64,000 nt of DNA from an uncultured Gammaproteobacteria bacterium (lineage in GTDB: Bacteria; Patescibacteriota; Microgenomatia; Levybacterales; GWA1-39-11). Position numbers and translations under genes: made by a program. Positions 32,190 through 61,225 of this stretch are shown piece by piece (position 1 is the first letter of the stretch; each line of letters opens with the position of its first letter). The notes beneath the pieces were generated by a model. That model was not told the DNA's origin. It worked only from the letters and a program-made list of their open reading frames with translations, and ran no database searches. Location of the stretch: the NCBI GenBank assembly GCA_964427615.1, contig CAYRUR010000001.1, positions 119,303 to 183,302 of the forward strand. Reading direction: 5' to 3'.

Positions 32190-33578
32190 TTACTTATAAC
32201 AGGAAAATACGTTAATTCTATTGGTAACTCCTTCTGCTTGTATTGGTACAGAATCTAAAAGTTCACATTCCTTAAGAATCTTGTGCTTATCAACAATTTC
32301 ATCTAACACAAACTCTTGGACGTTATATTGAGGATAAAAGGCACCGTGTGTAATAATTACTGTCTTTTTTTGTAGCGCATCTGTGGTAAGCGTGGAGGCA
32401 TTCAAAAATCCTTTTCTAAAAATATTAGTATTGGTATCAACTATATTGTTTAACAGCGGGGTATTGGTAAGGTAAGCCAGAGCAGGCGTAATATCATTGG
32501 GTCCGTATAAAAAGGAAGGTTCTGCTTTTTGTATAGATTTTTTTAAATCTTCTATATGCTCTACTCTTTGTAATGTGTGAAAGCCTGAAAAATAGGAAAA
32601 AAGATTGATGCAGACAAAAAAGAGAATAAGTGTGGGAACGATTCCTGATTGTATCGGTATTTTTCGGTGAATTGAGGTATGCAGTGAGGCATAAGAGAGC
32701 GCCAGAAAAGGTACAGCAAAATTGAGATACAAATAATAGATGTCCTGATATGCAAAGAAAAAAGTAATGCCAAATAGTGCAGCTAATCCAAAAAAGAGTT
32801 GTTTGCGAATGAGAAAAATGCTCCAGACGAGTAAAAGAAAAAGCAAGATATCATGAAAAATAAAAAACTGTCCGATATCCCACTTAGGAATACCAGCTCC
32901 TCTCGTAAGTGAGTAAGCAAACACATCGGTTAGAAAATCATTTCTGGCAAAGAGAAGAGATGGGGTAAGTACAACGAGTATTGTAGCGAGCATGCTGATG
33001 GATAAAAAGAGAAAAGGTTTTATTTTTTTCTGCAAAAGCAGTGCAACAAAAAAAGCAAAAGCCACAGGTAGAAAATAGGCTTTTATCATGAGGGTTAACC
33101 CTAGAAAAACACCTGCAAAGATGTATCGTTTTGTATCAAACAATATAAAAGCCAAGACAGCACACAGGGAGGCAATAAAAACGCCTGTTTGGTGGTCTGT
33201 AGTTGATAGGACAAGAAAAGAAAACAAGTACACTACTCCACTTAAGGTGGCAGGTATATACTGTCTGGTTTTATAAAGGGTATAGCCAGAGATAAGCGTT
33301 CCGGTAATGATAGCTTCCAAAGCAGGGGTAAGAAAAAAGAGGTTCAAATTGCCTTGCAGTAAAAAGACATAAAAAGCAGAAATATAAGCAAATAGAGGGA
33401 AGTTAGTAAAGAAAATATCTCTGTAGAGCATATTGCCTTGCAGAAGCTCGTAGCCTGTGTACCAGTAAATGTTGGAGTCTGAAAGTCTGATGCCAAATGT
33501 TGAAAGTTTTATCAAGAAAAAGAGAAGGACAAAAAGGAAAAAGGGAATAATTTTGGGGGTGGACAGTAGTTTTAGCAT
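32190..33578 (-). CDS. Polytopic membrane protein, GT-C-like glycosyltransferase (ArnT/PMT-like) candidate
   Basis: At least 10 transmembrane helices, an early extracytoplasmic loop, and a C-terminal soluble domain. No strong motif was seen. Confidence 0.35.
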   Translation of the reverse strand: MLKLLSTPKIIPFFLFVLLFFLIKLSTFGIRLSDSNIYWYTGYELLQGNMLYRDIFFTNFPLFAYISAFYVFLLQGNLNLFFLTPALEAIITGTLISGYTLYKTRQYIPATLSGVVYLFSFLVLSTTDHQTGVFIASLCAVLAFILFDTKRYIFAGVFLGLTLMIKAYFLPVAFAFFVALLLQKKIKPFLFLSISMLATILVVLTPSLLFARNDFLTDVFAYSLTRGAGIPKWDIGQFFIFHDILLFLLLVWSIFLIRKQLFFGLAALFGITFFFAYQDIYYLYLNFAVPFLALSYASLHTSIHRKIPIQSGIVPTLILFFVCINLFSYFSGFHTLQRVEHIEDLKKSIQKAEPSFLYGPNDITPALAYLTNTPLLNNIVDTNTNIFRKGFLNASTLTTDALQKKTVIITHGAFYPQYNVQEFVLDEIVDKHKILKECELLDSVPIQAEGVTNRINVFSCYK

Positions 33579-33580
33579 AT

Positions 33581-34618
33581 TTACTTTTTAAGCCGTAGAA
33601 GTATCCACCGCAGCTTATCCGCTACTTTATATGCTTGATACAAGGCAGGGTTAATTACTAGATCAAAGCTGCCGACGAATTCAGTCAGTTCTCCGCCATA
33701 CCCTTCCTTAAACCGATGAAATCCATACCAGGGGTCCTTTTTATCAGGATCAGGACTCAGCGCACCCCACATGTCAAACTGCTGTAGCTGCATGCTTCTG
33801 CCAAAACGTATTGCTTCCCATGCTATGAGATTAGAGGCCATTAGTTCTCTGTGTTCACTGCTTGAGGCACCATAAGGATAGTACAGCATGTCTTTAAAAG
33901 CAAAAAGTACCCATGAGACAAGTGTTTTTGTCTTTCCTGATTCATCTTTAAAGCGAGCATGAAACAAATGGTAAGTAAGGCTTTTAGTGTTGATATCATT
34001 GGAAAGTGTCTTCCAGAGTGTTTTATGGTAAGTAGGCGTGTGGGCATAAAATTTTTGCCGTGTAGTGGTTTCTTGCGTAAGGCGCATATACTCGGCAAAG
34101 GCTTTTTCAGAATTATCTTCCTCTACATACACCCCTTTGCGCTGTGCAAGACGAATGTTATAACGTGTTTTTGAATGCATGTTTTTGAGTAATGTCTCTT
34201 CATCAGGACTGATATCAAGGATAAATGTAAATTGGGTGAAAAGTGGATGAAAAGAAGGTCTGAGACTGTATTTTTTGTACCAGTTCTTACTTGTGTTTTT
34301 TTTGATAACATTGGGTTCTAGCTGGATAAAAATACAACGATGTTCTTTGGCAATGTCTTTGAGTGTTTGGATTAGTTTTTTAGAAGGCAGATTTCCTTTG
34401 GGTAAATAGCCTACGGTAAAAGGAGTATGAGGAATACGGTGAATGGTAATCGTAAAAGCTTCGGTTAACGCTTCGTTTTCAACTATTCCTTTGCGTATTA
34501 CGGTAACACCTGTTTTTTTTCTAAACTCTCCCCACTCAAATGATTGCAATGGGTGATTAACCACTGCATTATATGCTTCTTTTTCAGCTGCTGTAATATC
34601 AATAACACCGTTGACCAT
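33581..34618 (-). CDS. FemAB-family (GNAT-fold) peptidyl/aminoacyl-transferase-like protein
   Basis: N-terminal QSFEWGEF, and C-terminal DMLYYPYGASSSEHRELMASNLIAWEAIRFGRSMQLQQFDMWGA matching the FemABX pattern (YYxYGAS..E.R.L.A..L..WEAI.....G...YDFxG). Confidence 0.55.
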   Translation of the reverse strand: MVNGVIDITAAEKEAYNAVVNHPLQSFEWGEFRKKTGVTVIRKGIVENEALTEAFTITIHRIPHTPFTVGYLPKGNLPSKKLIQTLKDIAKEHRCIFIQLEPNVIKKNTSKNWYKKYSLRPSFHPLFTQFTFILDISPDEETLLKNMHSKTRYNIRLAQRKGVYVEEDNSEKAFAEYMRLTQETTTRQKFYAHTPTYHKTLWKTLSNDINTKSLTYHLFHARFKDESGKTKTLVSWVLFAFKDMLYYPYGASSSEHRELMASNLIAWEAIRFGRSMQLQQFDMWGALSPDPDKKDPWYGFHRFKEGYGGELTEFVGSFDLVINPALYQAYKVADKLRWILLRLKK

Positions 34619-36480
34619 TAAAAATATTCTGGCATATCTTTGTCTTGCATTGCAAAACTTTGTTCACGTATTTCTTCAGGGAGTTCAAATAAAAAGCGGG
34701 AAACAGTATTTGAAGTTCTTTGTCCAAAAAAAAGTCGGCGTTTGGCATACGTTAAGTATAACTTGTGTTTTGCCCGGGTAATGCCTACATAGCAGAGTCT
34801 TCTTTCTTCTTCAACATCTGACTCATCAAAAAATGATTGGCTATGTGGGAAAAGACCTTCTTCCATACCTACCATAAAGACTACCGGAAATTCGAGCCCT
34901 TTGGCAGCATGAAAAGTCATAAGTGTGATTGCATTGGGTTTTTCTTCATTTTGAGATTTATCAGGCATGTATTCCTGCTCTACCAGAGAAACATTTTCCA
35001 AAAATTGCACAAGATTGGTAAAGGAAATAGCTACAGAACGCAGCTCTTTGATATTCTCAAGCCGTGCTTTGTCTTCTGGGTCATTGGCATCATACAGTCC
35101 TAGATAATCTACTTGTTTTATCACTTCATCTAAAATTTCAATGGTGGATTTTTCTTCCAGATAATTTTTTTGGTTAAATTCCTCAACGTATTCTAAGAAT
35201 AGTTTTGCTCTTCTCTTACCGATTTTCTCAATGCGAGAAAAAGCAACAGTGTCTTTTTGATTAGCTAGAAAAGAAAGAAATGAAAGTACATCTTTGATCT
35301 CTTTTCTTTCATAAAATCGGGTGCCTCCTACCAGCTTGTATGGTATACCGTGATGGAGCAAGACTTCCTCAAGAGCACGGGATTGAGCATTCATACGGTA
35401 TAACACGGCAACGTCAGAAAGGCTGAAAGAAGGATCTTGTCGAGAACGCTGGAGTATTTCTTGAATAATAAATTCTGCTTCATTTTGTTCACTTTCTGTC
35501 TCATGAATTTCTATCTCTTCTCCTGTAGGGTTTTGGGTCCAGAGAGCAAGAATAGGATGCGTGTTATTATGCTTGATAACGGTATACGCAGCATCTAAAA
35601 TGTTTTGGGTGGAGCGATAATTTTGGGATAAAGGAAACGTTTTAGCCTCAGTAAAGTCCTTTTTAAATTTTTCTAAGTTTCGGAAATCAGCACCGCGAAA
35701 ACTATAAATGCTTTGAGCAAAGTCTCCCACAATACACACATTACGATGCTTTTCTCCCAGTAGTTTAGTAAGTGTGTACTGGGCGTGGTTCGTATCCTGA
35801 TACTCATCCACCAAAATGTATTGATAGAGCTCCTGATATTTTTCCAGCACGGAAGGATTATCTTTTAATAGCCTGATTGTCTCAAGCAGTAAATCATCAA
35901 AATCAAGTGCATTATTTTCTCTTAAGAGATGCTGATAAAGTGGATAGACACGGGCCACTGTTTCTTGAAAATAACCTCTGGCGTATGAAGAGTACGTAGT
36001 TGGATCAAGCATTTGATTTTTAGCAGCAGAGATAGATTGGTGTACTGACTTAGGACGAATATTTTTAGGTGAAATATCCAATTTCTTAAATACTTCTTTG
36101 ACAATAGCCTGTTGGTCCTGGACATCATAAATAACAAAGTTACTTGGGATGCCAATGTGTTTTCCGTCACGGCGCAATAGACGAGCACATAATGAGTGAA
36201 AGGTGCCGACAGTTGGCAATGCGTACGTACCAATGTCCGTATGGTGTTGCCCTAATATCGTTTTTATTCGCTCAAGCATTTCATTGGCTGCTTTGTTGGT
36301 AAAGGTAACCATGAGAATGTGGGAAGGGTGAATATTTTTTTCAAGAATCAAATAAAGGACTTTGTACACGAGTACTCGTGTTTTACCACTGCCTGCTCCT
36401 GCCAACACAATTTGCGGACCCTGGGTAGTCTTTACTGCTTCTTGTTGTTCTTTGTTTAGCTCATTGAGAAACTGATTCAT
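34618..36480 (-). CDS. UvrD/PcrA/Rep-family ATP-dependent DNA helicase
   Basis: Motif I AGAGSGKTRVL, motif II VDEYQDTN, and later helicase motifs (VGDFAQSIYSFRGA, YRS). Confidence 0.85.
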   Translation of the reverse strand: MNQFLNELNKEQQEAVKTTQGPQIVLAGAGSGKTRVLVYKVLYLILEKNIHPSHILMVTFTNKAANEMLERIKTILGQHHTDIGTYALPTVGTFHSLCARLLRRDGKHIGIPSNFVIYDVQDQQAIVKEVFKKLDISPKNIRPKSVHQSISAAKNQMLDPTTYSSYARGYFQETVARVYPLYQHLLRENNALDFDDLLLETIRLLKDNPSVLEKYQELYQYILVDEYQDTNHAQYTLTKLLGEKHRNVCIVGDFAQSIYSFRGADFRNLEKFKKDFTEAKTFPLSQNYRSTQNILDAAYTVIKHNNTHPILALWTQNPTGEEIEIHETESEQNEAEFIIQEILQRSRQDPSFSLSDVAVLYRMNAQSRALEEVLLHHGIPYKLVGGTRFYERKEIKDVLSFLSFLANQKDTVAFSRIEKIGKRRAKLFLEYVEEFNQKNYLEEKSTIEILDEVIKQVDYLGLYDANDPEDKARLENIKELRSVAISFTNLVQFLENVSLVEQEYMPDKSQNEEKPNAITLMTFHAAKGLEFPVVFMVGMEEGLFPHSQSFFDESDVEEERRLCYVGITRAKHKLYLTYAKRRLFFGQRTSNTVSRFLFELPEEIREQSFAMQDKDMPEYF

Positions 36481-36567
36481 AACTTGCTATAATGAAGATT
36501 GCTTAAATAAGGGTGGGCACGTTATCAGTGCTTCTCCTTTGATTATACCAGATCCTCTCCACAAAGC

Positions 36568-37236
36568 ATGGAAAAAAAACTATATATCGGCAATTGGAAA
36601 TCACACAAAACGAGTGATCAGACTAGAGTTTTTTGGCAGCAATTTGCTAAAGAAATCGAAAACATTTCCCTTACCCATCAAGAAGTAGTTGTCTGTCCTT
36701 CTTTTACAGCACTTGGTGTGAGCAGAGAACTAATCAGATACCATGCTTTGCCAGTAAAACTGGGATCACAAGATATTTCCCCTTTTCCAGAAGGAGCCTA
36801 CACAGGTGAGGTAGCAGGATCTCAGCTGAAAGAATTAGCAGATTATGTTATTATTGGTCATTCAGAACGTCGGAATTTATTGAATGAAACCGATAAAGAT
36901 GTAGAAGAGAAAGTAACACAGGCAAAAGCACAGGGTCTTATTCCTGTTGTATGTGTTCAGGGATCAGAGACACCAATTCCAGCTGAAAGCAAGTATGTGG
37001 CCTACGAGCCAGTAACAGCCATTGGTACTGGTAATCCTGATAGCCCTGAAAATATTGCAGCAGTTTTTTCTGCTATTCATAGGGACCGGCCGGATGTTAC
37101 CCTGCTCTATGGTGGCAGTGTTAATGAGGAAAATGTAAAAAATTTTATGCACATTCCTCTTTTGTCTGGTTTTTTAATTGGGGGTGCAAGCCTTGATCCA
37201 GGTACGTTTGCCCGCATTATTCAATCTCATGAGTAA
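36568..37236 (+). CDS. tpiA: Triosephosphate isomerase
   Basis: IGNWKSHKT, IIGHSERR and YEPVTAIGTG active-site motifs. Confidence 0.9.
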   Translation: MEKKLYIGNWKSHKTSDQTRVFWQQFAKEIENISLTHQEVVVCPSFTALGVSRELIRYHALPVKLGSQDISPFPEGAYTGEVAGSQLKELADYVIIGHSERRNLLNETDKDVEEKVTQAKAQGLIPVVCVQGSETPIPAESKYVAYEPVTAIGTGNPDSPENIAAVFSAIHRDRPDVTLLYGGSVNEENVKNFMHIPLLSGFLIGGASLDPGTFARIIQSHE

Positions 37237-38365
37237 AAGAAGAAAAATTACGATTATTGCTGTCAGTACTCTTCTGCTTTTAGGTGGAATACTTTTTTAT
37301 TTTAGAGCATTTTTGCCTCTTTTTGTAACGGTTGCATCCCCTATCCCCTTGCAAACACCACAAGAAGAAAAAGATTTTAATGTACTGTTGCTCGGTAAAG
37401 GTGGAGCACGTCATGATGGACCAGATTTAACAGACACGATTATGGTAGCCAATGTGCAGCCTGCCAAAAATAGAGTAAATCTGATTTCTCTTCCTCGTGA
37501 TCTATGGATCCCGCATATTCCTGGAAAGATTAACACTGCTTATGCTTTTGGACAAGAAAAGGGAGATGGAAAAGGTATGCTACTAGCAAAAGCTGTAGTA
37601 CAGAGAGTAACAGGAGTAGATATTGATTACGTCTTTGTTCTGGATTTTGATGGCTTTACTACGCTAATAGACCATTTGGGTGGTATTGATGTAAATGTGA
37701 AGCGGTCATTTGATGATTATGAATACCCCGTAGAAGGAAATGAAGCAGACTTATGTGGCCATACAGAGGAAGAAGCTGCACGCCTGGCAACTGAGTCAGC
37801 AAGCATGCTTGAAGTTTTCCCATGCCGATATAAGCATCTGCATTTTGATAAAGGTGTGCAGCATATGGATGGAAATACAGCGCTTGAATTTGTTCGTTCC
37901 CGTCATGCATTGGGTCCTGAAGGAAGTGATTTTGCCCGCAGTGCCCGTCAGCAGGAAGTGATTAAAGCTACCCGTGAAAAAGCACTCTCTCTTAACATTT
38001 TGTTAAATCCGGTAAAAGTGTTAGGTATTTATGATATTGTAAAACAAAATATTGACACTGATATTCCTGTAGAACAGTATGATAAATTTGCCAAAATTGC
38101 AAAGAGAATGAGTGACGTAACTATTAAAAGTTTTGTTATCTCAGAAGATGATCTCAGTAATGATACCTATGGATTGCTTACCAACCCTCCTACGGCAAAA
38201 GAATATGGATACCAGTGGGTACTTGCTCCCAGAGCTGGTAATGGTGCCTTTGATGAGATTCGGGAGTATGTAGCCTGTGTTATCAGTGGTAATAACTGTC
38301 TTATCACCAAAACAGGTATTAGTAGTATGCCAGCAACTGGTTCAGCAGAACTATCAACGCACTAA
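37229..38365 (+). CDS. LytR-CpsA-Psr (LCP) family cell-wall glycopolymer ligase
   Basis: N-terminal transmembrane helix, then LLLGKGGARHDGPDLTDTIMVANVQPAKNRVNLISLPRDLWIP, the LCP core. The ATG at 37229 overlaps the tpiA stop (ATGAGTAA). Confidence 0.75.
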   Translation: MSKRRKITIIAVSTLLLLGGILFYFRAFLPLFVTVASPIPLQTPQEEKDFNVLLLGKGGARHDGPDLTDTIMVANVQPAKNRVNLISLPRDLWIPHIPGKINTAYAFGQEKGDGKGMLLAKAVVQRVTGVDIDYVFVLDFDGFTTLIDHLGGIDVNVKRSFDDYEYPVEGNEADLCGHTEEEAARLATESASMLEVFPCRYKHLHFDKGVQHMDGNTALEFVRSRHALGPEGSDFARSARQQEVIKATREKALSLNILLNPVKVLGIYDIVKQNIDTDIPVEQYDKFAKIAKRMSDVTIKSFVISEDDLSNDTYGLLTNPPTAKEYGYQWVLAPRAGNGAFDEIREYVACVISGNNCLITKTGISSMPATGSAELSTH

Positions 38366-40512
38366 TTACGGACTTTATAAATGGTTACCCCTGGATTTTG
38401 ATAGATCACACTCCCTAACGTTTGTAACTGTTCTTCTTTGAGGAATGGATATTTTTCTCGCTCCAGGTTGCCTACATAAATGTATGAAACATTGTACTTT
38501 TTAAGTACTGCTCTTGCTTGTGGAAGGGTACCTTCATAAATAGTTTTTACCTCGTTGATACGAGGAGAAACCATTTCATAGGTTCCTCTCCAGAGCCATT
38601 CATGTACAGTCCACCCCATGATAGTAGGAAGACCAGTATTGGCAGAAATGCGCTCGTAGTCTGTATATGATTCTCCCTGTGCTTCAACCATAATAGGTTG
38701 TCCATTAATGTTTTTGTTGATCCAGTCAATCGCTTCTTTATCGTATGGGTGAAGAATATCTAAATAAGCAAGTCCATTCAGTCCTTTATAGGCAGAAAGG
38801 TTGTTGTAATAAGAAGAAATTGCAAAGTATGGGTAAGCAAAGATGGAAACTAACAGCACAATACTTGCAAGCATCAGTATTGTATTGCGAGCTGGTTTTA
38901 TGACTGAAATGATCACGGCAGAAGATACTAAGGAAAGCATAATAAACGCTTGATAGCCAAGCTTAAACATAGTATTAGCGCGATAATGTTGGGGGTAAAT
39001 ATCTTTTACATAGATAAATTCAGGTGCCAACAAAAGCAGTAGTGAAAGAAAAAGTAAGGCAAGTACAAATAACGACTCTCCTTTTTGTACTTTTATTTTT
39101 AGGGTTAAGAAGTAATAGATAAAAACAGCCCCAAAAAAGAGGAAAAAGCCATGCAAAATGAAAAATTGCCACCAGACAGAGCGTTGACAATGGTTTTGCT
39201 CAAAAAGAAGGGGTCCTAGTTTGCCAAGATGGGTTAAAAAGTCAGGAGCACAAATTACACCAACTCCAGAGACAAAAGGTGAAAAATGCAGACTAAAAGG
39301 CAAAGAAAAAAGGAAAAAACCAATAACAAGCGTTGCCATAGAGGCAAAAAGAGGAAGCAAAGTATTAGAAATTCTCTGGATATTTTTTGGAAGTGAGATG
39401 GATATTTTTTTAAAAAGAGAGATAGTTCGTGATCCTTTGAAACGTAGACGAGGGATAAAAAGCAGGAGAAAGATCAAAAAGCTAAGAGTCAAGTAGATAG
39501 CCCCATCCCAGGCATTGGTCATGTACAGCACTGCTATAACCAGTGATAAGAGAATGAGGAGTGGAAGGTGGACATTCTTGGTTTTGTAGATGGATAAAAG
39601 AAGTGCAATAGTGAGTAATACAAATGGAATATCAAGCACATGTCCATGCAAATCTGAGACAACAAAAGAGTAAATCGGAAATTCGTGGATAGTAAAAGGA
39701 ATAAAACGAGTTGCATTTGGGTACCAATAATCATTCGGAAATGTTTGTAATGAAAAGGCAAGGTTCCAAAAAGGAAGGGGGTTATCAGCAGGGTAGGAAG
39801 TGAAAAAAGCATACAGAGTGTGCAGGTTACCTCCTAGCGAAACCAAGAATCCAGCAAGAATTCCCTGTACTACTCTATTTGTTGTAAGTTTTTTGGTAGC
39901 GGTAAGCAGATGGAGTCCAATTGAAAAACTTAAAGAAAATGTGAACGCAAAAAGAGTGGCAACCATGAGGTTAAAGGTAATAAAAGCAGGGATACTGCTT
40001 ATTTTGGTAAGGACTGCGGTAACCAGATGCCCAAAGTAGTAATAATTAATGGAAAGAGGTGCAAACCACATATCCTTAGGCGGAAAATACTCGCTTCTTA
40101 AAATCGAGTTAATAAAGCCAAAATCCATGTATTTCTCAAGTCCTTGGATACTTGGCTCGTGTCCTCTGATATATACCCAAAAAAGAAAGGTTGCTAAGAA
40201 AAGTAATTCTTCTGCAACCAACAATTTTTTATTAACGGTACTAACAGATAAAAAGTTCTTTTTTAACAAAAGGCTATTGATGCCAAAAGCAATGAATAAT
40301 ACAGTGAGTATGGTGTAAAAATGAAACGGCGCAATATGAAAAATACCCAGAAGAAAGATAGTGTAGGATAACAAAAGAACTCCTAATACTTTGGAAAACA
40401 GGTAACCTCTATCCAAAAATGACGGAAAAAGAAGTGCCGTAAGTGGAAAAAAAATAACACCGATATAAAATAAAAGCAGCCACCATTGTGTAATAAAGAG
40501 TATGTCGCTCAT
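38362..40512 (-). CDS. DUF2298 / Chlor_Arch_YYY-domain polytopic membrane protein (GT-C-like)
   Basis: 716 aa with at least 12 transmembrane helices, the hallmark INYYYFGH motif, and a C-terminal soluble domain. Confidence 0.55.
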   Translation of the reverse strand: MSDILFITQWWLLLFYIGVIFFPLTALLFPSFLDRGYLFSKVLGVLLLSYTIFLLGIFHIAPFHFYTILTVLFIAFGINSLLLKKNFLSVSTVNKKLLVAEELLFLATFLFWVYIRGHEPSIQGLEKYMDFGFINSILRSEYFPPKDMWFAPLSINYYYFGHLVTAVLTKISSIPAFITFNLMVATLFAFTFSLSFSIGLHLLTATKKLTTNRVVQGILAGFLVSLGGNLHTLYAFFTSYPADNPLPFWNLAFSLQTFPNDYWYPNATRFIPFTIHEFPIYSFVVSDLHGHVLDIPFVLLTIALLLSIYKTKNVHLPLLILLSLVIAVLYMTNAWDGAIYLTLSFLIFLLLFIPRLRFKGSRTISLFKKISISLPKNIQRISNTLLPLFASMATLVIGFFLFSLPFSLHFSPFVSGVGVICAPDFLTHLGKLGPLLFEQNHCQRSVWWQFFILHGFFLFFGAVFIYYFLTLKIKVQKGESLFVLALLFLSLLLLLAPEFIYVKDIYPQHYRANTMFKLGYQAFIMLSLVSSAVIISVIKPARNTILMLASIVLLVSIFAYPYFAISSYYNNLSAYKGLNGLAYLDILHPYDKEAIDWINKNINGQPIMVEAQGESYTDYERISANTGLPTIMGWTVHEWLWRGTYEMVSPRINEVKTIYEGTLPQARAVLKKYNVSYIYVGNLEREKYPFLKEEQLQTLGSVIYQNPGVTIYKVRN

Positions 40513-40568
40513 AGCTATATTATTTTCTGTTTCGTTTTTTTGATATTATGCAGGTAGAAAAAGCTTTT

Positions 40569-41138
40569 TTATTTTTTCTTTTTTTCAAAATACAGATTAT
40601 AAAATTCCAGTAAGTCATGAATAGGAGTAATATTTTTTGGTAATCTCTTTTGAGGTAACCTCTCTCCATTTTTTACCCAATAGAACTGTATTTTAGGGTT
40701 TTGTTTAGCAAGATACAGGAGTAAATCTAAATCATCATCAATAAAAGTATCGATTTTTGTTTTTTGGATAACTCTATTTTTTTCCAAATGGGGTTGTTTA
40801 TTTTTAAAATTAAAATGAATTTCTTTAAAAAGAGGTTGCATATTGTGTCTTATTATCCATTCCTCTGTTTTTTGTTTTAAAAAACCGAATCTTCCAGATA
40901 TTAAGTAAAGGTCATGATTATTTTGTTTGGCTATTTTTTGCAGAATCTGGACATTTTTTGTAATAGGTTTGCGCAACACTGGGTGGTGGGAAAGAATGCG
41001 TACTTTTTGTTCTATTTTTCCAGGAATACGGTATGACAGTCTTCTTGTTCTTTTTTTATACAGAAAATGAACAAGAGACGTGGGAATAAATGGCGGGAAA
41101 TTTACAAACACTTTGTCAAAATCAAATCCTATTTTCAT
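40569..41138 (-). CDS. Hypothetical protein (possible HAD-like or nucleotidase fold)
   Basis: 189-aa ORF starting MKIGFDFDKVF. Weak resemblance only. Confidence 0.3.
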   Translation of the reverse strand: MKIGFDFDKVFVNFPPFIPTSLVHFLYKKRTRRLSYRIPGKIEQKVRILSHHPVLRKPITKNVQILQKIAKQNNHDLYLISGRFGFLKQKTEEWIIRHNMQPLFKEIHFNFKNKQPHLEKNRVIQKTKIDTFIDDDLDLLLYLAKQNPKIQFYWVKNGERLPQKRLPKNITPIHDLLEFYNLYFEKKKK

Positions 41139-42184
41139 AAAAATTTGTTAATAATTTCGAGTAGCTTAAAATTCCAAATTGTTTTATGGGTTTTGCCGAC
41201 AGTATGTAAAAACTCTTTGCGATGTTCTTTATACCAATCATAACTTTCAATGAGAATTTCTTTATTTGATTTGGTAGGAGTAAACCGTAACTGCTTTTTA
41301 GCTTTTTCAATACTGACATAGGAATTAACGGGAAAGGTTTTGTAATGCCAGGCAACAATAGGAGATAAATGCAGTTTTTCCAAAATTGCCAGAGCTGTTT
41401 GGGTAGGCAGTACGGGTAAAGATAAAATTTTGGACTGTGATTTGGCGTGCTTGATAAGTGCTGAGAGATCTTTTTTCCAGGTATCATAGCGATCAGTACC
41501 TACATTGAAAATTTCACCATCTTTTTTAGTAAGGAGCGCAGATTCGATTGCACGACAGAGATCTTGTACTTCAAGGAGTTGGTAGAGGTTATTTCCTTTG
41601 CCTAAAATAAACACGGGCTTATTGTTATATATTGCTTCAAACCACAGGGTAAAAACACCTAGTCGTTCTGGCCCTAAAAATGTTTTGGGACGCAGAATGT
41701 TAAGGGATAATCCTTTTTTATGATATTGAAAGCACAATTTTTCTCCCGCAGCTTTTGATTCTCCATAATAACCGATAGGATAAATTTCGTCTGTCTCTTC
41801 TTCAGGTAATTTTTTGGGTACTCCATACATAGCGGTAGTAGAGATAAAGATAAGTCGTTTTACTTTTTGTTGTAAAGTTGCCTCAAGTACATTTCTGGTA
41901 CCCTTTACATTGACATCAAAAATATACTCTCTATTTTGATGAATAGGTAGTGCTGCTGCAGCATGGACTACGTAGTCTACTCCTTTTGTGGCTGCTAGTA
42001 TTTTTTTCTTATCTCGAATATCAGCTGTAATAACCGTAACTTTTCCTTCTAAGTCTTTGGCAGCAAGTGGAGCAATGTCATAAAGGATGACGTTATACTG
42101 TTGTTTTAAAAAATGGCGAGCCAAATGGGTCCCTAAAAAACCAGTTCCTCCAGTTATTAAAATAGTCTTTTTTCGTTTTGGCAT
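41135..42184 (-). CDS. NAD-dependent epimerase/dehydratase (extended SDR) family protein
   Basis: ILITGGTGFLGTHLARHFL Rossmann motif, and YGESKAAGE (YxxxK). Confidence 0.8.
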   Translation of the reverse strand: MPKRKKTILITGGTGFLGTHLARHFLKQQYNVILYDIAPLAAKDLEGKVTVITADIRDKKKILAATKGVDYVVHAAAALPIHQNREYIFDVNVKGTRNVLEATLQQKVKRLIFISTTAMYGVPKKLPEEETDEIYPIGYYGESKAAGEKLCFQYHKKGLSLNILRPKTFLGPERLGVFTLWFEAIYNNKPVFILGKGNNLYQLLEVQDLCRAIESALLTKKDGEIFNVGTDRYDTWKKDLSALIKHAKSQSKILSLPVLPTQTALAILEKLHLSPIVAWHYKTFPVNSYVSIEKAKKQLRFTPTKSNKEILIESYDWYKEHRKEFLHTVGKTHKTIWNFKLLEIINKFL

Positions 42185-42256
42185 ATACGTATTGTACTAT
42201 GGTACGTAAGAAAAATAAAATCCTTCATGTCTTTGTTTAACAAGTAAGACTGACTT

Positions 42257-43942
42257 TTATAGGCGTTTAAAGATAATAACATGGGGATGATCATAAACCG
42301 TAAATGATTCATCAGCGCTTTGATCATTGATTGTTATATTCGTAAAGGGAATAGTAGGAAAACTAGTAAATTCTGCCACTTTTTGAAAACCTAATGCTCC
42401 TGTTAATAACTGGTGATAATAGGCTGCTGTAAGGGGATAGCAGAAGTTAGGAGATAATTTTTGGCAGTTAGTCAACTTTTGTAGAGGCTCAGCAAGTCTT
42501 TGAGAAGAAAGAATAATATAATCTGTCTCTAACAACTGTTCTCGAATCAAGTGCCATTTTTGAGTGGTATCAGGTTGATAAAGATCTAACGTGATAAAGG
42601 TATATTTATTGCTATCATACAGTGGCAAGGCATCATCCCAGTACTCTACTGCTAGGCTGCTGTCTGCAGGAATGGAGCGATGGATCCAGTCAGAGGCTTG
42701 CATACGCGTATGGTCTTTTGTGTAAATCTGCATAAAGCTTAAAGGCCAGATAAGAAGAAGTAAAGATAAAACAATACCTAGCGCAAGACTTTTTTTAAAT
42801 GAAAAAAAAGCAAGTATTTTTTCAAAAAGGATGGCAGCAAAGAGAACAATCAATGGATAGACAGGCAACATATATCGCATCCACCCTACAGCAAAACTAC
42901 CCACTATTGCTAAGTGGAGCAAGAAAAATATCAGCACAATAACCAGTGGTAATTTCTCTTTTTTCTTTTTCCAAATACTAACCAGAAGATAGAAAAAACC
43001 TGTTGCAGCAAAAAGAGATAACAAGGGTCCTAGTCCCCACAGAAAGATTTGTTTTAGCTGATACCAGTAGGGAGTAATGCCTACATACTGCAAGGTGTAA
43101 GGAAATGTGAAAGCACTCTTGGTCATGACTGCTTGTTCTGTTGTTTGCTGCCAGAATGAGTCAAAATCAATAAAGGCATAGGGTTCAAAAAGAAAAAGAA
43201 AAAGTACCCCTACACCAGTAAAAAAAAGTGCCTGCGTTAAAAATAAAGAAATACTTTTTTTTAAGTTTTTTTGTTTTTTGGCAAGATGGGGATAGATGGT
43301 TTTTGCCATCAGTGCTATGCCAAGCGGTGCAATAAGAAGAATAGCACTTATTTTGGTAGCTATGGCTGCAGCTGTAAAAATAGCCAGTAAAAGTATGTTT
43401 TGCAAAGAAGGAGTTTGTAAGTAGCGGATGATTTGCCATAAGGTAAGGATAGTAAAAAAAGTGAGAAGAATATCAACTGCATAAAAGTGGGATGTTTGGA
43501 TAGGAAAAACAGCAGTGGTATACAAGGCAGCTACAAGAAGCCCTGTTTTTTCTGAAAATAATTTTTTTCCTATAAAAAACAATACTAACACAGTTCCAGT
43601 ATCTGCCAAAGCTGATAAGAGTCGGCCTAAAATATTAATCTTAGTGTAATTGCCAAAATCAGGATCAAGAAAAGAGAAAGGATAGGCAAAAAGTTTTAAT
43701 AGGTAAAAAGGCAGACTGCCGTAAGCAAAAAAATGAGGATTCAAAGGACTTTGCTCAGAAAAAAAAGCAGACAACGAAGAGGGTAAGGAGAGTTTTTCTA
43801 CAGTCATCACAATAGCTCTTTCATCAGGATGTAAATGCGTTCCTTTATCCCAATTGATGTTGTATGTTCTGAGCAGAAAAGCCAAGAAGAGAATGGCAAG
43901 TAATATTCCTTTGGTGATGGGAGTAAGATGTTTTTTATTCAT
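42257..43942 (-). CDS. GT-C-fold polytopic membrane glycosyltransferase candidate (paralog A)
   Basis: 561 aa, at least 11 transmembrane helices, an acidic first-loop motif HLHPDERAIVMT, and a soluble C-terminal domain. Paralogous to 43935..45638. Confidence 0.5.
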   Translation of the reverse strand: MNKKHLTPITKGILLAILFLAFLLRTYNINWDKGTHLHPDERAIVMTVEKLSLPSSLSAFFSEQSPLNPHFFAYGSLPFYLLKLFAYPFSFLDPDFGNYTKINILGRLLSALADTGTVLVLFFIGKKLFSEKTGLLVAALYTTAVFPIQTSHFYAVDILLTFFTILTLWQIIRYLQTPSLQNILLLAIFTAAAIATKISAILLIAPLGIALMAKTIYPHLAKKQKNLKKSISLFLTQALFFTGVGVLFLFLFEPYAFIDFDSFWQQTTEQAVMTKSAFTFPYTLQYVGITPYWYQLKQIFLWGLGPLLSLFAATGFFYLLVSIWKKKKEKLPLVIVLIFFLLHLAIVGSFAVGWMRYMLPVYPLIVLFAAILFEKILAFFSFKKSLALGIVLSLLLLIWPLSFMQIYTKDHTRMQASDWIHRSIPADSSLAVEYWDDALPLYDSNKYTFITLDLYQPDTTQKWHLIREQLLETDYIILSSQRLAEPLQKLTNCQKLSPNFCYPLTAAYYHQLLTGALGFQKVAEFTSFPTIPFTNITINDQSADESFTVYDHPHVIIFKRL

Positions 43943-45638
43943 GTTTTACTTCAAAAAGATACACAGTAGGTCTGTCAAAAACATATGCTGTCTCTTCAAG
44001 ATATGTTTCAAAACCACCCAGATAAGCAATTCTACAAAATAGGTTGCAGTTTGTTTTATAGACCAATTCATACTTTTTTTCATCAAAAAGCCCAGTGTAA
44101 AAAGAATGTCCTGCAGGAAATTGCTCAGGCTGGGAAAGACGAGATTTTAACACTCTTTGGCTCGGAAGTAGCACGTAATTTGTCATCTGTAACTGCTGTT
44201 GTAAAAGTTCTTTTTTTGCAGAGTCTTGGTCAAGTGAGTAAAAATCAAAAATAGTAATAGTTTGGGGCAGTTCTTGAAAGGCGGTAAGTCCTACATCATA
44301 CGGTTCACTTAAGAGGTGTTGTTGAGGAGGAAGGTTTTGTTTCATCCAAGATGAGGCATCTACTCTCGTATCTGGATATAAATATACAGTAACGAAAAAG
44401 GATATGCCAAATAAGGCACTGATGACACTTATCGTTACAAATGCAAGGTACTTATCTACAGCAAGTGAAAAAGGTTGAATAAGTTTCGGCACTCTCTCAT
44501 ATGGAAATCGAGCTACCAGAAGAGCAATAAAAAGGTATATAAATGGCAGTAATGGCACCATGTAACGGGTCCATTTCACAAATAAAAATGCTTGCGAAGC
44601 AAAAAGAATAAAAAAAGCTAGCAAATATATGCCAAAAGAATTTTTATATTGTATGCTTTTCACAAAAAAGAACACTAAAGCAGGAAGCATAAGAAGGGTT
44701 AGAAGTGGATTAAGTAAAAAAGGAAAGACTTTAAAGAGCTGAAAGACAACAGGTGTAGTATCAATAAATCCTTGAGTATAAAAAACAGGAAGACTGCCTG
44801 TAGCAACAGAAGACTCATATTGCATGCTGGCTAAAAACGAAGTGGTATCTAACAAAACATATGGATTGCTTACGACAAAAATACTTACTGGAATAACAAA
44901 AAGAAAAACAGTGTAGGCAATAGATGTGTATATTTTTTGGGATAAAGGTGTTGCTTGATGGATAAGATCATACAGCAACACAATAAAAGGTAATGCCAGT
45001 AGTGGTAAAGACGAGACTTTTAGGGCAATACTTATTCCTAGACAGATAGTAGAGATTAGGAAAAAGAGCAATCTTTTGTTTTTTATATAGAGTACTAAAG
45101 TATATACAAAGGCAAAGTAAAAAAAGGTAAGCCACATTTCATAGGTCCCAAAATGAGTATATTGGATAAGTCCTGTGCTTACTGTTGCCAAGAAAAGGGC
45201 AAAAATGCCTGTGCTCTGCTGATCTAGTTGTTTTGCAGCTTTATAAATGAGGATAAGTAGTAAGGTTGAGAAAAGAACGGAAAGAAAACGAAGTATTAAA
45301 ATAGCTTGCTCAAAAGTAGCTTGAAAAGGAGAAATGCTCTGTCCAGTAAGCCTATTCCACACAACGGCTGTTGCATACGTGAGATAAATAGGCAAACTAC
45401 CATAAGCAAAAAAATGAGGATTAAGGTTATCAGGATAGGATAGATTTACAACAGCTGAGGCAATGTTGCGTTCATCAGGATGAAAATAGTAAGGAGCACC
45501 CCAATTAAGGTTATAGAAACGTAGCAAAAATCCAAGGGCAACAATGAGAAAGAGAAAAAAAGAAACGGAACGTGGATAACTTTTCATGTTTCTATGCTTT
45601 TTGATCCTCCACCATGATCTGAGCTGCTTTTTCACCAA
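43935..45638 (-). CDS. GT-C-fold polytopic membrane glycosyltransferase candidate (paralog B)
   Basis: 567 aa, first-loop FHPDERNIASAV motif, and the same architecture as paralog A. The two genes are in tandem and overlap by 8 nt. Confidence 0.5.
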   Translation of the reverse strand: MVKKQLRSWWRIKKHRNMKSYPRSVSFFLFLIVALGFLLRFYNLNWGAPYYFHPDERNIASAVVNLSYPDNLNPHFFAYGSLPIYLTYATAVVWNRLTGQSISPFQATFEQAILILRFLSVLFSTLLLILIYKAAKQLDQQSTGIFALFLATVSTGLIQYTHFGTYEMWLTFFYFAFVYTLVLYIKNKRLLFFLISTICLGISIALKVSSLPLLALPFIVLLYDLIHQATPLSQKIYTSIAYTVFLFVIPVSIFVVSNPYVLLDTTSFLASMQYESSVATGSLPVFYTQGFIDTTPVVFQLFKVFPFLLNPLLTLLMLPALVFFFVKSIQYKNSFGIYLLAFFILFASQAFLFVKWTRYMVPLLPFIYLFIALLVARFPYERVPKLIQPFSLAVDKYLAFVTISVISALFGISFFVTVYLYPDTRVDASSWMKQNLPPQQHLLSEPYDVGLTAFQELPQTITIFDFYSLDQDSAKKELLQQQLQMTNYVLLPSQRVLKSRLSQPEQFPAGHSFYTGLFDEKKYELVYKTNCNLFCRIAYLGGFETYLEETAYVFDRPTVYLFEVKHE

Positions 45639-46884
45639 TTTCTACTGCATAATTGGTTCCTCTATCCCATGGATAGACTTGTTGCATATTGGCAAGGTAC
45701 ACATTTTGAAGAGGAGTTTTAATAGAAGGAATCATCTTGGAATAATTAACCGGTACAATAGGTTGTGCAAACGGTGCTTTGAAGATATGTGCTTGGATAA
45801 GCGTTTTACGGTAGTCCGTGTTGATCTGTTTTAAGAATGGATCAAAGCGTTTTAATAATTCTTCTGCACTGAGCGAAAAATGAGGATGATTGGCAGGAAG
45901 ATAATTGCCTAAATATACTAAGTGGTCATTGTTGTAATGCTTTTTGTTCATAAAATGCGTGTGTTCTACAATAGCCATCACAGGTGCATTTTTCTGACAA
46001 ATACTGAGCCAATAGGTATTGCTAGGCAAGAATTCTTTTTTAAGTCGCAATACCAGATTGATGGCTCCTAATCCATTAAGTTTTGCCAGTTTTTTACTGT
46101 AGGCAGTAGGAAGGTCAGGAGTTATCTGATCAAAAAGAGCTGAAGGAAGGGTTACTAACACTTTATCAAATTCCTGCACTGTTTTTTTTGTCTTTTTTTG
46201 GGTGTGTACCGTGATTTTATTGCGTTTGGGTTCTATACGAGTTACCTGTGTCTCAAAGTAAAAGGTAGCATTTTTGTTAGATAAAAAAGAGACAAGATGT
46301 TCTGCAAACCGCAGAAAACCACCCTCAGGATAGGCAAGAGAACTGGTTCTTTTTTTGATACGCGCCCAAAACCAGGCAAGTGAAACATCTGTGTGGTAAT
46401 CTCCAAATTTATTGACGAGCTGCGGTTCCCAAATAGTTTTATATGCTTTTTTTCCCATGAGTTTTGGTAGCATAGTTGCTGCATTAACCTGCTCGAGCGG
46501 TTGCCAAAATGGATCAAAGCGTAGTGCTGCCAGAACTCCGGCCATACGTAGGCGCTCAACCAGTGACAACTGAGGAAATGTCAGGATGTGTAAAGGAGAG
46601 TCAAGTTGGAAAATTTGATTATCAAGATAGACTGATGTTTTTGGGCGCTTAATAAGAACAGGATACTGTATGTCTGAGGCTAGTTTGAGAATTGCTTTAT
46701 CATTAGTAAACCAGTGATGATAGTGCTGCTCTAAAGTCCAGTTCCATTTATCAGTTTGAAATCCAAGGGCCAGTCCACCTGCAGTCTTATCTCTTTCAAA
46801 CAGAGTTACGGTGTGCCCTTTTTGAATTAATGTATAAGCAGCTGATAAACCCGTAAAACCGGCTCCAATAATTGCAATATTCAT
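45592..46884 (-). CDS. FAD-dependent oxidoreductase (amine-oxidase/CrtI-like fold; UDP-galactopyranose-mutase-like is possible)
   Basis: N-terminal dinucleotide-binding motif MNIAIIGAGFTGLSAAYTL...LFERDKTAGG. Length 430 aa. Confidence 0.6.
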   Translation of the reverse strand: MNIAIIGAGFTGLSAAYTLIQKGHTVTLFERDKTAGGLALGFQTDKWNWTLEQHYHHWFTNDKAILKLASDIQYPVLIKRPKTSVYLDNQIFQLDSPLHILTFPQLSLVERLRMAGVLAALRFDPFWQPLEQVNAATMLPKLMGKKAYKTIWEPQLVNKFGDYHTDVSLAWFWARIKKRTSSLAYPEGGFLRFAEHLVSFLSNKNATFYFETQVTRIEPKRNKITVHTQKKTKKTVQEFDKVLVTLPSALFDQITPDLPTAYSKKLAKLNGLGAINLVLRLKKEFLPSNTYWLSICQKNAPVMAIVEHTHFMNKKHYNNDHLVYLGNYLPANHPHFSLSAEELLKRFDPFLKQINTDYRKTLIQAHIFKAPFAQPIVPVNYSKMIPSIKTPLQNVYLANMQQVYPWDRGTNYAVEIGEKAAQIMVEDQKA

Positions 46885-48303: not shown

Positions 48304-48318
48304 ATCTGTTTTTTATTC

Positions 48319-48621
48319 TTATAGTTCTGCAGCTGGTGTGGCTGTTGGTATTTCAGATGTATCGGGAATAGTTTCCTCAGGTGTAGTTGAGGCTGCTTTA
48401 CTAGCTACAGGGCTTTTTTCTTCTAGGTTAGCAGGGATAATTTTTCTACCCGAAAGCGAATTGACAGTTGCAGTATCAAATGAAGGAGCAATGGGTTTGA
48501 TACGGGATGTTGTTTCGGGCAAAATGGTTGATTCAGTAGCACTAAGATAGATAGTAACTACGGTAAAAATTAGTACCATTGCTGCAATAGATGCTGATAA
48601 GTAAAGGATGTTGCGTATCAT
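48319..48621 (-). CDS. Small secreted or membrane-anchored protein
   Basis: 100 aa, N-terminal hydrophobic helix, Thr/Pro-rich. Confidence 0.3.
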   Translation of the reverse strand: MIRNILYLSASIAAMVLIFTVVTIYLSATESTILPETTSRIKPIAPSFDTATVNSLSGRKIIPANLEEKSPVASKAASTTPEETIPDTSEIPTATPAAEL

Positions 48622-61220: not shown

Positions 61221-61225
61221 ATACT

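Follow-up and report, generated by a model that had tools for sequence, protein, structure and literature searches.

What does a bacterium of the Candidate Phyla Radiation (CPR) build with an array of polytopic membrane glycosyltransferases, a glycopolymer ligase and two redox enzymes that may act on sugars? This question is raised by positions 32190-46884 of the 64,000-nucleotide (nt) stretch of DNA analysed here (hereafter, the window), which encode several candidate GT-C glycosyltransferases, a DUF2298 protein, an LCP-family ligase, a FemAB-family transferase, an extended SDR (short-chain dehydrogenase/reductase) and an FAD-dependent oxidoreductase of the PRK07233 family. A previous reading of the sequence alone (the sequence-only reading) had taken these genes for the first block of an envelope-glycopolymer cluster that assembles a complex wall-linked glycan from polyprenyl-phosphate sugar donors, and had speculated that the oxidoreductase and the SDR form an epimerisation couple like DprE1/DprE2. 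We estimate, with a probability of about 0.5, that the region is the larger part of a Levybacteria variant of lipid-linked pentofuranose/GT-C glycosylation, which would feed an LCP-attached wall polymer, surface proteins, or both. So read, the locus represents no new kind of system but a CPR version of the pathway described for mycobacterial arabinan and for the side chains of O-antigens. The window has a G+C content of ~37%, and its proteins are 57-64% identical to those of metagenome-assembled genomes of Candidatus Levybacteria/Levyibacteriota (Microgenomates, CPR); judging from these best matches, the source is probably a Levybacteria-like CPR bacterium.

The ~15-kb range does not form a single cluster: gene spacing divides it into three units, the main one of which starts outside it. 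The first, on the minus strand, comprises the genes for a UvrD-type helicase, the FemAB-family protein and a 462-residue GT-C-like protein, with neighbours overlapping by 1 nt or lying 2 nt apart; the second consists of the overlapping tpiA and LCP genes on the plus strand. The third is the 3' two-thirds of a ten-gene minus-strand operon (49810 to 38362; gaps of -8 to +72 nt), in the order PilN-like, PilO, 100-residue protein, Ig-like protein, flavoenzyme, GT-C A, GT-C B, SDR, HAD phosphatase-like protein and DUF2298. Because this operon begins at 49810, upstream of 46884, the range as originally delimited cuts it at the fifth gene. In scans for regulatory sites, promoter-like sequences occurred at chance level and terminator-like sequences in slight excess (19 versus 11.8 +/- 3.2 by chance), and neither is informative for the operon boundaries. 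Open reading frame (ORF), Pfam and NCBIfam checks located every gene that the sequence-only reading had named where it had placed them, and revealed two that it had overlooked, the UvrD/PcrA helicase (34618-36480) and the 189-residue HAD protein (40569-41138).

The arrangement is conserved in related genomes. Using the flavoenzyme as anchor, we fetched 80 loci, all from Levybacteria-type genomes, and obtained five more by exact look-ups, for a total of 85 (L001-L085) with flanks of up to 10 kb; downstream counts refer to the 58 loci that extend at least 8.5 kb past the flavoenzyme, and upstream counts to 68 loci. Upstream of the flavoenzyme, gene order is nearly invariant (PilN-like in 67/68, PilO in 66/68, the small protein in 45/68 and the Ig-like protein in 67/68). 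On the other side, the DUF2298 gene closes the cassette in 51/58 loci and the LCP gene is present in 42/58, as part of the convergent LCP-tpiA pair that is followed by UvrD-FemAB. This conserved order shows that the association of the genes goes beyond chance. The content of the cassette varies within the frame, and at least two types can be told apart. Window-like (type 1) loci carry GT-C A and B, usually the HAD gene (29/58) and often the SDR gene (within 10 kb of the flavoenzyme in 22/58), and the 23 type 2 loci encode other polytopic proteins, namely F545 (DUF2298-like), F420 (a weak GT87 match) and F458/F517 (PMT_2; F458 in some). Genes for a GT-B glycosyltransferase, a methyltransferase or a cyclase are occasionally inserted as well. 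With its constant frame and exchangeable glycosyltransferases, the cassette region looks hypervariable in the manner of a serotype locus, as diversification of a surface glycan would lead one to expect.

The enzyme that would open the pathway lies 15 kb from the range, in a second block (57873-63226) that encodes a GT2 synthase-like protein, a fifth GT-C, a 117-residue protein, a GT4 and a UbiA-family protein. The latter scores 226.8 bits against NF008977 (cut-off 234) and 197.8 bits against NF008978 (cut-off 207), 8-10 bits short of both, is 33-36% identical to annotated DPPRS genes, and carries the sequence NDIFDVKKD, an instance of the catalytic NDxxDxxxD loop that mutagenesis has shown to be essential in the Citrobacter enzyme (PMC11127046). 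The GT4 matches WecA (83 bits) better than MraY (53 bits), and the GT2 synthase-like protein contains TDAD and QERRW (QxxRW-type) motifs, with weak PgaC and Glycos_transf_2 matches. An ORF of 117-131 residues occupies the position of the small membrane protein in most related loci, and the 117-residue protein is a candidate flippase for the lipid-linked donor. Neither the window nor 2.26 Mb of related Levybacteria loci yielded a GtrA homologue, and the product of the nearby MurJ gene (50232-51878) presumably flips lipid II. The second block is complete in 31-32 of the 32 Levybacteria metagenome loci compared (GT2-like 32/32, fifth GT-C 31/32), with the GT4 adjoining UbiA in all 32. In 11 loci the two blocks are 7.8-9.3 kb apart, and L071 has a UbiA gene, paralogue or orthologue, that shares the motif and stands directly between the flavoenzyme and GT-C A. 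Since a WecA-like initiator and an LCP ligase bracket the set, a wall-glycopolymer pathway is indicated. The proposal of a wall-linked glycan made from polyprenyl-phosphate donors is thus strengthened by UbiA and GT4 15 kb away, by the conserved LCP gene and by the lactococcal and haloarchaeal parallels described below. A literature search returned no paper joining Patescibacteria with decaprenyl-phosphate phosphoribosyltransferase.

The link between the operon and UbiA enzymes extends to unrelated phyla. We searched a database of 72,556 plasmids, only 96 of which carry such a UbiA phosphoribosyltransferase gene. By tblastn, a homologue of the flavoenzyme was found in eight plasmid records, and in seven of these it lies within ~5 kb of the UbiA gene. 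Six loci from five of these records (Burkholderia stagnalis, Agrobacterium salinitolerans, three Rhizobium species and Rhodobacteraceae SC52) share the same six-gene operon, which encodes an HAD-UbiA fusion (PRK08238, 447 bits), a DprE1-like protein (NF053785, 318 bits; cut-off 500), a DprE2-like protein (NF053786, 149 bits), an extended SDR, the PRK07233 protein (502.6 bits) and GtrA. The seventh record is a second Rhizobium tumorigenes plasmid, on which the UbiA and flavoenzyme matches are 3.2 kb apart. In the eighth, from Embleya, the homologue follows genes for a DegT aminotransferase and a GT2 and precedes two GMC oxidoreductases, and thus keeps sugar-tailoring company. Proximity to UbiA in seven of eight records, when so few plasmids carry UbiA at all, makes PRK07233 look like an accessory that UbiA phosphoribosyltransferase pathways may or may not include.

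The SDR has similar associations. Of the 15 plasmid homologues ranked highest (all at E <= 1e-30), the first six (34-39% identity) adjoin UbiA or lie at most 3.5 kb from it, in Natronococcus (two), Halostagnicola, Haloterrigena, Streptomyces SAT1 and Nonomuraea, and three more are within 6 kb, including one on Rhizobium CCGE531 plasmid pRCCGE531b, a record listed as an 'elaborate' candidate pentofuranose system (PMC11127046). The UbiA-neighbouring homologues are 31-39% identical to the window SDR over the full length of the latter, with the CCGE531 protein at 31-32%. The Haloterrigena SDR, which is flanked by a UbiA gene and two GT-C genes, aligns by blastp with 37-38% identity over 347 residues (E 1e-77 to 1e-82), a far stronger match than the best to any solved SDR, sterol-4-alpha-carboxylate 3-dehydrogenase (E 9e-22). 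The extended-SDR subfamily so defined accompanies UbiA phosphoribosyltransferases across Archaea, Actinomycetota, Pseudomonadota and CPR. Inherited synteny cannot explain these neighbourhoods, because both PRK07233-UbiA and SDR-UbiA recur across unrelated phyla with different gene orders. From the neighbourhoods, we consider it rather probable that the SDR acts on the product of the UbiA enzyme, and an even bet that the flavoenzyme does. As a separate observation, GMC-family FAD oxidoreductases adjoin the flavoenzyme homologue in Embleya sp. NBC_00888 (L169, 5192-15276) and SDR/SMR/UbiA genes in Rhizobium CCGE531 (L177, 9953-17895), a hint that lipid-linked sugars undergo flavin-dependent oxidation more often than has been described.

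The flavoenzyme belongs to NCBIfam NF005560 (PRK07233, 'hypothetical protein'), with 404.7 bits over residues 1-428 (cut-off 252), and has an N-terminal GxGxxG motif and no transmembrane segment. Its AlphaFold2 model (pLDDT 91.5) has a GR2/amine-oxidase-type fold, closest to protoporphyrinogen oxidase (PPOX), plant phytoene desaturase and monoamine oxidase (MAO) at a TM-score of ~0.8, with 14-18% sequence identity to solved structures of these types. A firm assignment as a carotenoid or porphyrin enzyme, which would have removed the protein from glycan synthesis in the sequence-only reading, can be dismissed given this low identity and family models far below their cut-offs. A fold like that of UDP-galactopyranose mutase, also considered there, was rejected too: no GLF Pfam match was found and no such mutase occurs in the top 50 structural matches in the Protein Data Bank (PDB). 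The next NCBIfam match of the flavoenzyme after PRK07233 is HpnE (87.5 bits; cut-off 283), and the best named match of the SDR is HpnA (103 bits; cut-off 368). HpnA and HpnE are both hopanoid-associated, and these matches probably mean that the two proteins both favour lipid-bound substrates, not that they take part in hopanoid synthesis.

The SDR carries TGxxGxxG and YxxxK motifs and is, from its sequence relatives, a candidate epimerase acting on a lipid-linked pentofuranose. The HAD protein belongs to a small family, with only 132 detectable members, in which residues D6, D8, R83, K120 and D134-136 are invariant and S81 is conserved in at least 90%. Its profile finds no match among PDB sequences; its HAD relatives emerged by fold search alone, where the top PDB matches of the AlphaFold2 model (pLDDT 91.4) are almost all HAD hydrolases (phosphatases and dehalogenases). 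From the modelled fold, from the 4 nt that its gene shares with that of the SDR and from precedents in other genomes, it is a candidate polyprenyl-phosphate-ribose-5-phosphate phosphatase.

All four polytopic proteins of the range, and the 505-residue protein of the second block, connect to GT-C enzymes by Pfam or profile comparison, which supports the assignment made from the sequence alone; none of the four looks like a transporter. The tandem paralogues both exceed the gathering score of 26.1 bits for Pfam PMT_2, a GT39/GT83-like GT-C family (B 48.0, A 38.9), and match each other with an hhalign probability of 100% over 523 columns. Their HPDER first-loop motif, noted earlier, lies at residues 53-57 in A and 38-42 in B, with the D and E invariant among 26 homologues of each. 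Paralogue A probably starts at the ATG at 45587, 4 nt past the flavoenzyme stop codon, and has eight predicted transmembrane segments. Against solved structures, the joint A/B profile matches yeast Pmt2 (6p25) with E 1.8e-5 and, more weakly, ArnT (E 0.0045). The plasmid database contained no tblastn match to paralogue B. For the 462-residue protein, comparison of the single sequence with GT-C families gave no clear answer and the family profile (30 homologues) did: it matches GT-C families with 94-96% probability over 237-309 columns, including the 505-residue family at 95.6% (E 1e-8, 309 columns) and paralogue B at 94%, and several homologues have PMT_2, GT87 or DUF2079 matches or bear the NCBI name GT39. 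The 505-residue protein, with a conserved YGDE motif, matches paralogue B with 97% probability.

The 716-residue DUF2298 protein is a full-length member of TIGR03662 (527.1 bits; cut-off 300.25) and matches PF10060 with E 5e-102. The YYYFGH sequence by which it had been recognised lies at residues 157-162 and is conserved in 25-26 of 26 homologues. Its tie to the GT-C network runs through the shorter relative F545 (97% probability, 464 columns), which in turn connects to PMT_2-like families; a profile search against PDB sequences found no solved relative. A Pseudobutyrivibrio DUF2298 gene sits within a polysaccharide cluster. In a literature search we found no paper giving DUF2298 a function and nothing relevant on PRK07233, TIGR03662 or TIGR03663.

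From these identities, folds, motifs, conserved gene orders and neighbourhoods we infer the following route. In the cytoplasm, the UbiA-type enzyme would transfer ribose-5-phosphate from phosphoribosyl pyrophosphate (PRPP) to polyprenyl phosphate, and the HAD phosphatase would remove the 5-phosphate. The extended SDR might then epimerise the lipid-linked ribofuranose to another pentofuranose, and the PRK07233 flavoenzyme might carry out a further redox step on the lipid-linked sugar or its carrier. Once flipped across the membrane, the donor would be used on the outer face by the PMT_2 paralogues, the DUF2298 protein, the 505-residue GT-C and perhaps the 462-residue GT-C. The acceptor could be a glycopolymer primed by the WecA/TagO-like GT4, which the LCP ligase would join to peptidoglycan.

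Several observations weigh against this route. Only 1 of the 85 loci has a UbiA gene within the first block, and in the window this gene is 15 kb from the operon. Type 2 loci lack both SDR and HAD, which places these genes in the variable cassette and not in the core. The closest ties of the flavoenzyme gene are with the PilN/PilO/Ig-like genes upstream and not with a GT-C, and three loci (L055, L081 and L084) retain it with no GT-C or DUF2298 gene downstream. By profile the GT-Cs resemble PMT and ArnT, and hexose donors can serve PMT_2 enzymes. The 117-residue protein with three predicted transmembrane segments has no Pfam match and no similarity to SMR or GtrA. Finally, the HAD protein does not match the phosphatase (PRP) domains of UbiA fusions (hhalign probability 0.15%), so that sequence homology to these domains was rejected, nor does it match the Lactococcus HAD-IB protein significantly by hmmsearch; because of these negative comparisons with known phosphatase domains, its proposed role is drawn from fold and gene context.

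The pairing of the flavoenzyme and the SDR invites a stricter version of the route, in which the two form a two-step 2'-epimerase, analogous but not homologous to DprE1/DprE2, that converts polyprenyl-phosphate-ribose to polyprenyl-phosphate-arabinofuranose for an arabinan-like polymer. Both genes share an operon with GT-C genes, both families are independently linked to UbiA in other phyla, an extended SDR immediately precedes PRK07233 in 6/6 proteobacterial loci, and the fold of the flavoenzyme is that of oxidases of hydrophobic, membrane-associated substrates; it would also fit that tblastn detected no DprE1- or DprE2-like gene in the window or in 2.26 Mb of Levybacteria flanks, which are flanks and not whole genomes. 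An obligate couple is not supported, however, because most loci have no SDR gene near the flavoenzyme (22/58 have one within 10 kb), because the SDR paired with PRK07233 in proteobacteria is only 24% identical and of a different subfamily, and because a DprE1-like gene (318 bits) and a DprE2-like gene are already present in that operon, so that PRK07233 must do something other than 2'-oxidation there. Moreover, close SDR homologues adjoin UbiA on replicons without a PRK07233 homologue at E <= 1e-8, and a single SDR (ORF13) suffices to convert undecaprenyl-phosphate-ribofuranose to the xylofuranose form in Citrobacter (PMC11127046). Nor are the proteins themselves of the DprE1 (VAO-type, NF053785) and DprE2 (classical SDR, NF053786) kinds, given the GR2/amine-oxidase fold of one and the extended SDR type of the other. 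The earlier analogy leads to the right pathway with the wrong mechanism, and we consider the strict couple improbable. We regard as equally improbable a reading without a shared pathway, in which the flavoenzyme is a lipid/isoprenoid (CrtI/HpnE/PPOX-like) or housekeeping oxidoreductase, the GT-Cs use polyprenyl-phosphate-hexose and the UbiA block is separate. Compact CPR genomes do keep unrelated genes in synteny (here tpiA, uvrD, rpsT, lepA and groEL are in conserved order), the structural neighbours of the flavoenzyme and its HpnE match (87.5 bits) would agree with such a role, and the three loci without a downstream GT-C would be accounted for. It is opposed by the PRK07233-UbiA and SDR-UbiA neighbourhoods in unrelated phyla, by the UbiA gene inside the L071 operon, and by the 14-18% identity and sub-threshold models that speak against a carotenoid or porphyrin enzyme.

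A further reading starts from the upstream genes of the operon, and holds that the PMT_2 GT-Cs O-glycosylate the Pro/Thr-rich stalk of the Ig-like protein, a pilus or other surface proteins, much like actinobacterial Pmt or TfpW, the enzyme of D-arabinofuranose transfer to Pseudomonas pilin. The PilN-like, PilO, Pro/Thr-rich small and Ig-like genes (46888-49810) are co-transcribed with the flavoenzyme and the GT-Cs, with the Ig-like gene constantly upstream of these (67/68 loci). The Ig-like protein, which may be a substrate for O-glycosylation, has a P/T/S-rich stalk in 76/84 homologues and a hydrophobic C-terminal tail in 68/84. Among solved structures, the closest relative of the GT-C paralogues is the protein O-mannosyltransferase Pmt2, and O-glycosylation of Pseudomonas pilin with arabinofuranose from a UbiA-derived donor has been described (PMC11127046). 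The conserved LCP gene and the WecA/TagO-like initiator favour a peptidoglycan-linked polymer instead, the operon has no PilM, pilin or pilus ATPase gene, and five GT-Cs plus a GT2 synthase-like protein exceed what simple protein O-glycosylation needs. We regard O-glycosylation as unlikely to be the sole explanation, although it and a wall polymer are not mutually exclusive, and the pentofuranose reading preferred here allows for both acceptors.

Comparison with known systems shows which parts of the preferred pentofuranose/GT-C pathway are familiar. The known kind consists of a polyprenyl phosphoribose synthase, an HAD-type phosphatase, a flippase and a GT-C, with auxiliary epimerases as optional members, either a single SDR for xylofuranose or DprE1/DprE2 for arabinofuranose (PMC11127046). 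The supplement of that study notes a standalone phosphatase in a phage and lists 'elaborate' loci of Burkholderia, Rhizobium, Xanthomonas and Bacillus that have multiple epimerases and GT-Cs. The O1/O2 systems of Citrobacter youngae (Kelly et al., PNAS 2024, PMC11127046) resemble the window in their UbiA-type synthase with NDxxDxxxD and cassette-like gene content and, if the roles proposed here hold, in an HAD-type phosphatase, an auxiliary cytoplasmic SDR epimerase and a GT-C acting on a flipped donor. They differ in that the phosphatase is fused there and the candidate phosphatase here is a separate 189-residue protein with no detectable similarity to the fused domains; the synthase here is in another block 15 kb away; five PMT_2/DUF2298-type GT-C genes stand here in place of one GT136; no MATE or recognisable SMR/GtrA flippase is found here; and the PRK07233 flavoenzyme and DUF2298 are constant members here. 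The host, too, is a Gram-positive-type CPR bacterium with an LCP ligase and not an O-antigen producer.

The mycobacterial arabinan pathway comprises the phosphoribosyltransferase DPPRS (Rv3806c), the phosphatase Rv3807c, DprE1/DprE2, the GtrA-like Rv3789, Aft/Emb GT-Cs, WecA and Lcp1. It shares with the window WecA-type priming, a UbiA-type phosphoribosyltransferase, dephosphorylation, redox tailoring of a lipid-linked pentose, several GT-Cs and LCP attachment to peptidoglycan, as proposed here. In contrast to mycobacteria, the flanks examined contain no homologue of DprE1 (VAO-type) or DprE2 (classical SDR), the candidate phosphatase is HAD-type and not PAP2-type, and the GT-Cs are PMT/ArnT-like, with no Emb/Aft similarity seen in the comparisons made. 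The proteobacterial six-gene operon, itself uncharacterised, has in common with the window a PRK07233 member, a UbiA phosphoribosyltransferase and an extended SDR, but it includes DprE1-like, DprE2-like and GtrA genes and no DUF2298, and its SDR (24% identical, of another subfamily) and flavoenzyme (24-27% identical) are distant. Closer in setting is the wall-polysaccharide locus of Lactococcus cremoris pF27D, with a polytopic protein, a UbiA protein (33% identical), a standalone 187-residue HAD phosphatase and an LCP; it differs in having a GtrA flippase, in lacking the flavoenzyme, SDR and DUF2298, and in an HAD protein with no detectable sequence similarity to that of the window. TIGR03662 and TIGR03663 proteins of Archaea and Chloroflexi are reported to co-occur, often as neighbours (TIGRFAMs descriptions). 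The window likewise combines a full-length TIGR03662 member with paralogues that are weakly TIGR03663-like and share an invariant first-loop DE, but at 29.4 and 17.8 bits these do not reach the TIGR03663 (Agl23-like) cut-off of 126.25 and are not members.

A more far-reaching proposal, which we hold to be doubtful, is that PRK07233 enzymes are an unrecognised tailoring class for polyprenyl-phosphate-linked pentofuranoses and that in Levybacteria, where DprE1/DprE2 seem to be missing near these loci, the flavoenzyme yields a pentofuranose donor by an undescribed route, feeding a wall polymer built by DUF2298/PMT_2 enzymes. It might work alone as a redox-neutral isomerase or together with the SDR, through 2'-/3'-oxidation, 5'-oxidation or formation of a different epimer. 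If true, the CPR, whose members are uncultured and whose envelopes are almost uncharacterised, would gain their first example of an arabinan- or xylan-like pentofuranan envelope, and DUF2298 its first function; a new pentofuranose donor would also extend a pathway that is a major mycobacterial drug target. Short of this, the analysis ties two 'hypothetical' families, PRK07233 flavoenzymes and DUF2298/YYY proteins, to lipid-linked sugar metabolism, and published farnesyl-phosphate/PRPP assays suit the proposals made here. The locus and its hypervariable GT-C cassette likely determine the surface chemistry of Levybacteria and their interactions with hosts and phages.

Table 1. Genes of the ten-gene operon, the adjoining units and the second block, with window positions, strand, length in amino acid residues (aa) and supporting evidence (TM, transmembrane segment)
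Feature	Positions (strand)	Length (aa)	Evidence and remarks
PilN-like bitopic membrane protein	49241-49810 (-)	189	First gene of the operon; one TM; 4-nt overlap with next gene
PilO-family bitopic membrane protein	48618-49244 (-)	208	PF04350 E 2.7e-9
Small bitopic protein with Pro/Thr-rich tail	48319-48621 (-)	100	From translation
Membrane-anchored Ig-like/fn3-like surface protein	46888-48303 (-)	471	Big_13 and Pur_ac_phosph_N matches
FAD-dependent oxidoreductase, NCBIfam PRK07233	45592-46884 (-)	430	NF005560; cytoplasmic
GT-C paralogue A, PMT_2	43935-45638 (-)	567 from TTG	PF13231 38.9 bits
GT-C paralogue B, PMT_2/PMT/GT22-like	42257-43942 (-)	561	PF13231 48.0 bits
Extended SDR	41135-42184 (-)	349	PF01370 E 8e-47
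HAD-superfamily phosphatase-like protein	40569-41138 (-)	189	4-nt overlap with SDR gene
DUF2298/Chlor_Arch_YYY polytopic protein	38362-40512 (-)	716	TIGR03662, PF10060; C-terminal soluble domain; last gene of the operon
LCP-family glycopolymer-peptidoglycan ligase	37178-38365 (+)	395 from TTG	PF03816 E 2e-34
Triosephosphate isomerase (tpiA)	36568-37236 (+)	222	PF00121 E 4e-57
UvrD/PcrA-type helicase	34618-36480 (-)	620	PF00580 E 4e-94, PF13361 E 4e-66
FemAB-family aminoacyltransferase	33581-34618 (-)	345	PF02388 E 4e-36; no TM predicted
Polytopic GT-C-like protein	32190-33578 (-)	462	Nine TM predicted; no Pfam match of its own
Second block: membrane GT2 synthase-like protein	57873-59369 (+)	498	Five TM predicted
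Second block: fifth GT-C	59366-60883 (+)	505	Weak PMT match
Second block: small three-TM membrane protein	60867-61220 (+)	117	Translation and TM prediction
Second block: WecA/TagO-like polyprenyl-phosphate HexNAc-1-phosphate transferase, GT4	61226-62281 (+)	351	PF00953 E 3.5e-24
Second block: UbiA-family polyprenyl-phosphate 5-phosphoribosyltransferase (PPPRS/DPPRS type)	62282-63226 (+)	314	NF008977, NF008978, motif

The remaining genes of the range are neighbours with varying claims to a place in the pathway (Table 1). The LCP protein scores 119 bits against PF03816 (cut-off 24.6) and 101.5 bits against TIGR00350 (cut-off 62.3), has one transmembrane segment (residues 22-53), and its gene converges on that of DUF2298. 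The overlap with tpiA that had been noted is confirmed and depends on the start codon, amounting to 59 nt from the TTG and 8 nt from the ATG at 37229; in L004 (16296-18057) it is 11 nt, and the two genes are adjacent in 34/58 loci. The pairing is odd and apparently translationally coupled, with triosephosphate isomerase a conserved neighbour and not a glycan enzyme. The FemAB-family protein, which like the extended SDR and the flavoenzyme had been named correctly, and the helicase, a housekeeping protein, are likewise conserved neighbours and not demonstrable members of the glycan pathway; by its family, FemAB would act on the peptidoglycan peptide. The overlapping pair of FemAB and the 462-residue GT-C-like protein recurs in two other Levybacteria genomes (L180, 5979-8401; L181, 5910-8398), ~50 kb from the flavoenzyme block and without UvrD, which suggests that the partner of this GT-C is the enzyme of peptidoglycan peptide branching and not the main operon. 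Many loci, like the window (53712-54791, minus strand), have between their two glycan blocks a gene for an LPXTG-anchored cohesin/PKD surface protein with a weak NCBIfam match to 'CPR pilus system RbmA-like protein PamR' (E 1.4e-5).

Other features of the window include two components of type IV secretion-like character, a T4SS_pilin-domain protein (1596-2534, minus strand) and a 799-residue TrwB/VirD4-like coupling ATPase (26259-28658, minus strand); in L003, a T4SS_pilin gene follows DUF2298. Three large ORFs, at 3923-7522 (plus strand, 1199 residues), 7571-9397 (minus strand, 608 residues) and 20859-22712 (minus strand, 617 residues), have no Pfam match at E <= 0.001. A cobalamin riboswitch (14975-15112, plus strand; 36 bits, gathering score 31.5) lies just 5' of a 466-residue ORF with no Pfam match (15265-16665, plus strand), and a ribonucleotide reductase with a TSCPD domain is encoded upstream of the riboswitch (10869-13283, plus strand). 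Between two 87-nt tRNA genes (29239-29325 and 30219-30305) is a LAGLIDADG-domain ORF (29374-30147, minus strand) that may be the remnant of a homing endonuclease. Adjoining the 32190 end of the range, a plus-strand gene (31344-32180) encodes a protein in which an ATP-cone, an Mrr-type restriction endonuclease domain and, at the C-terminus, an AF1548-like domain are fused.

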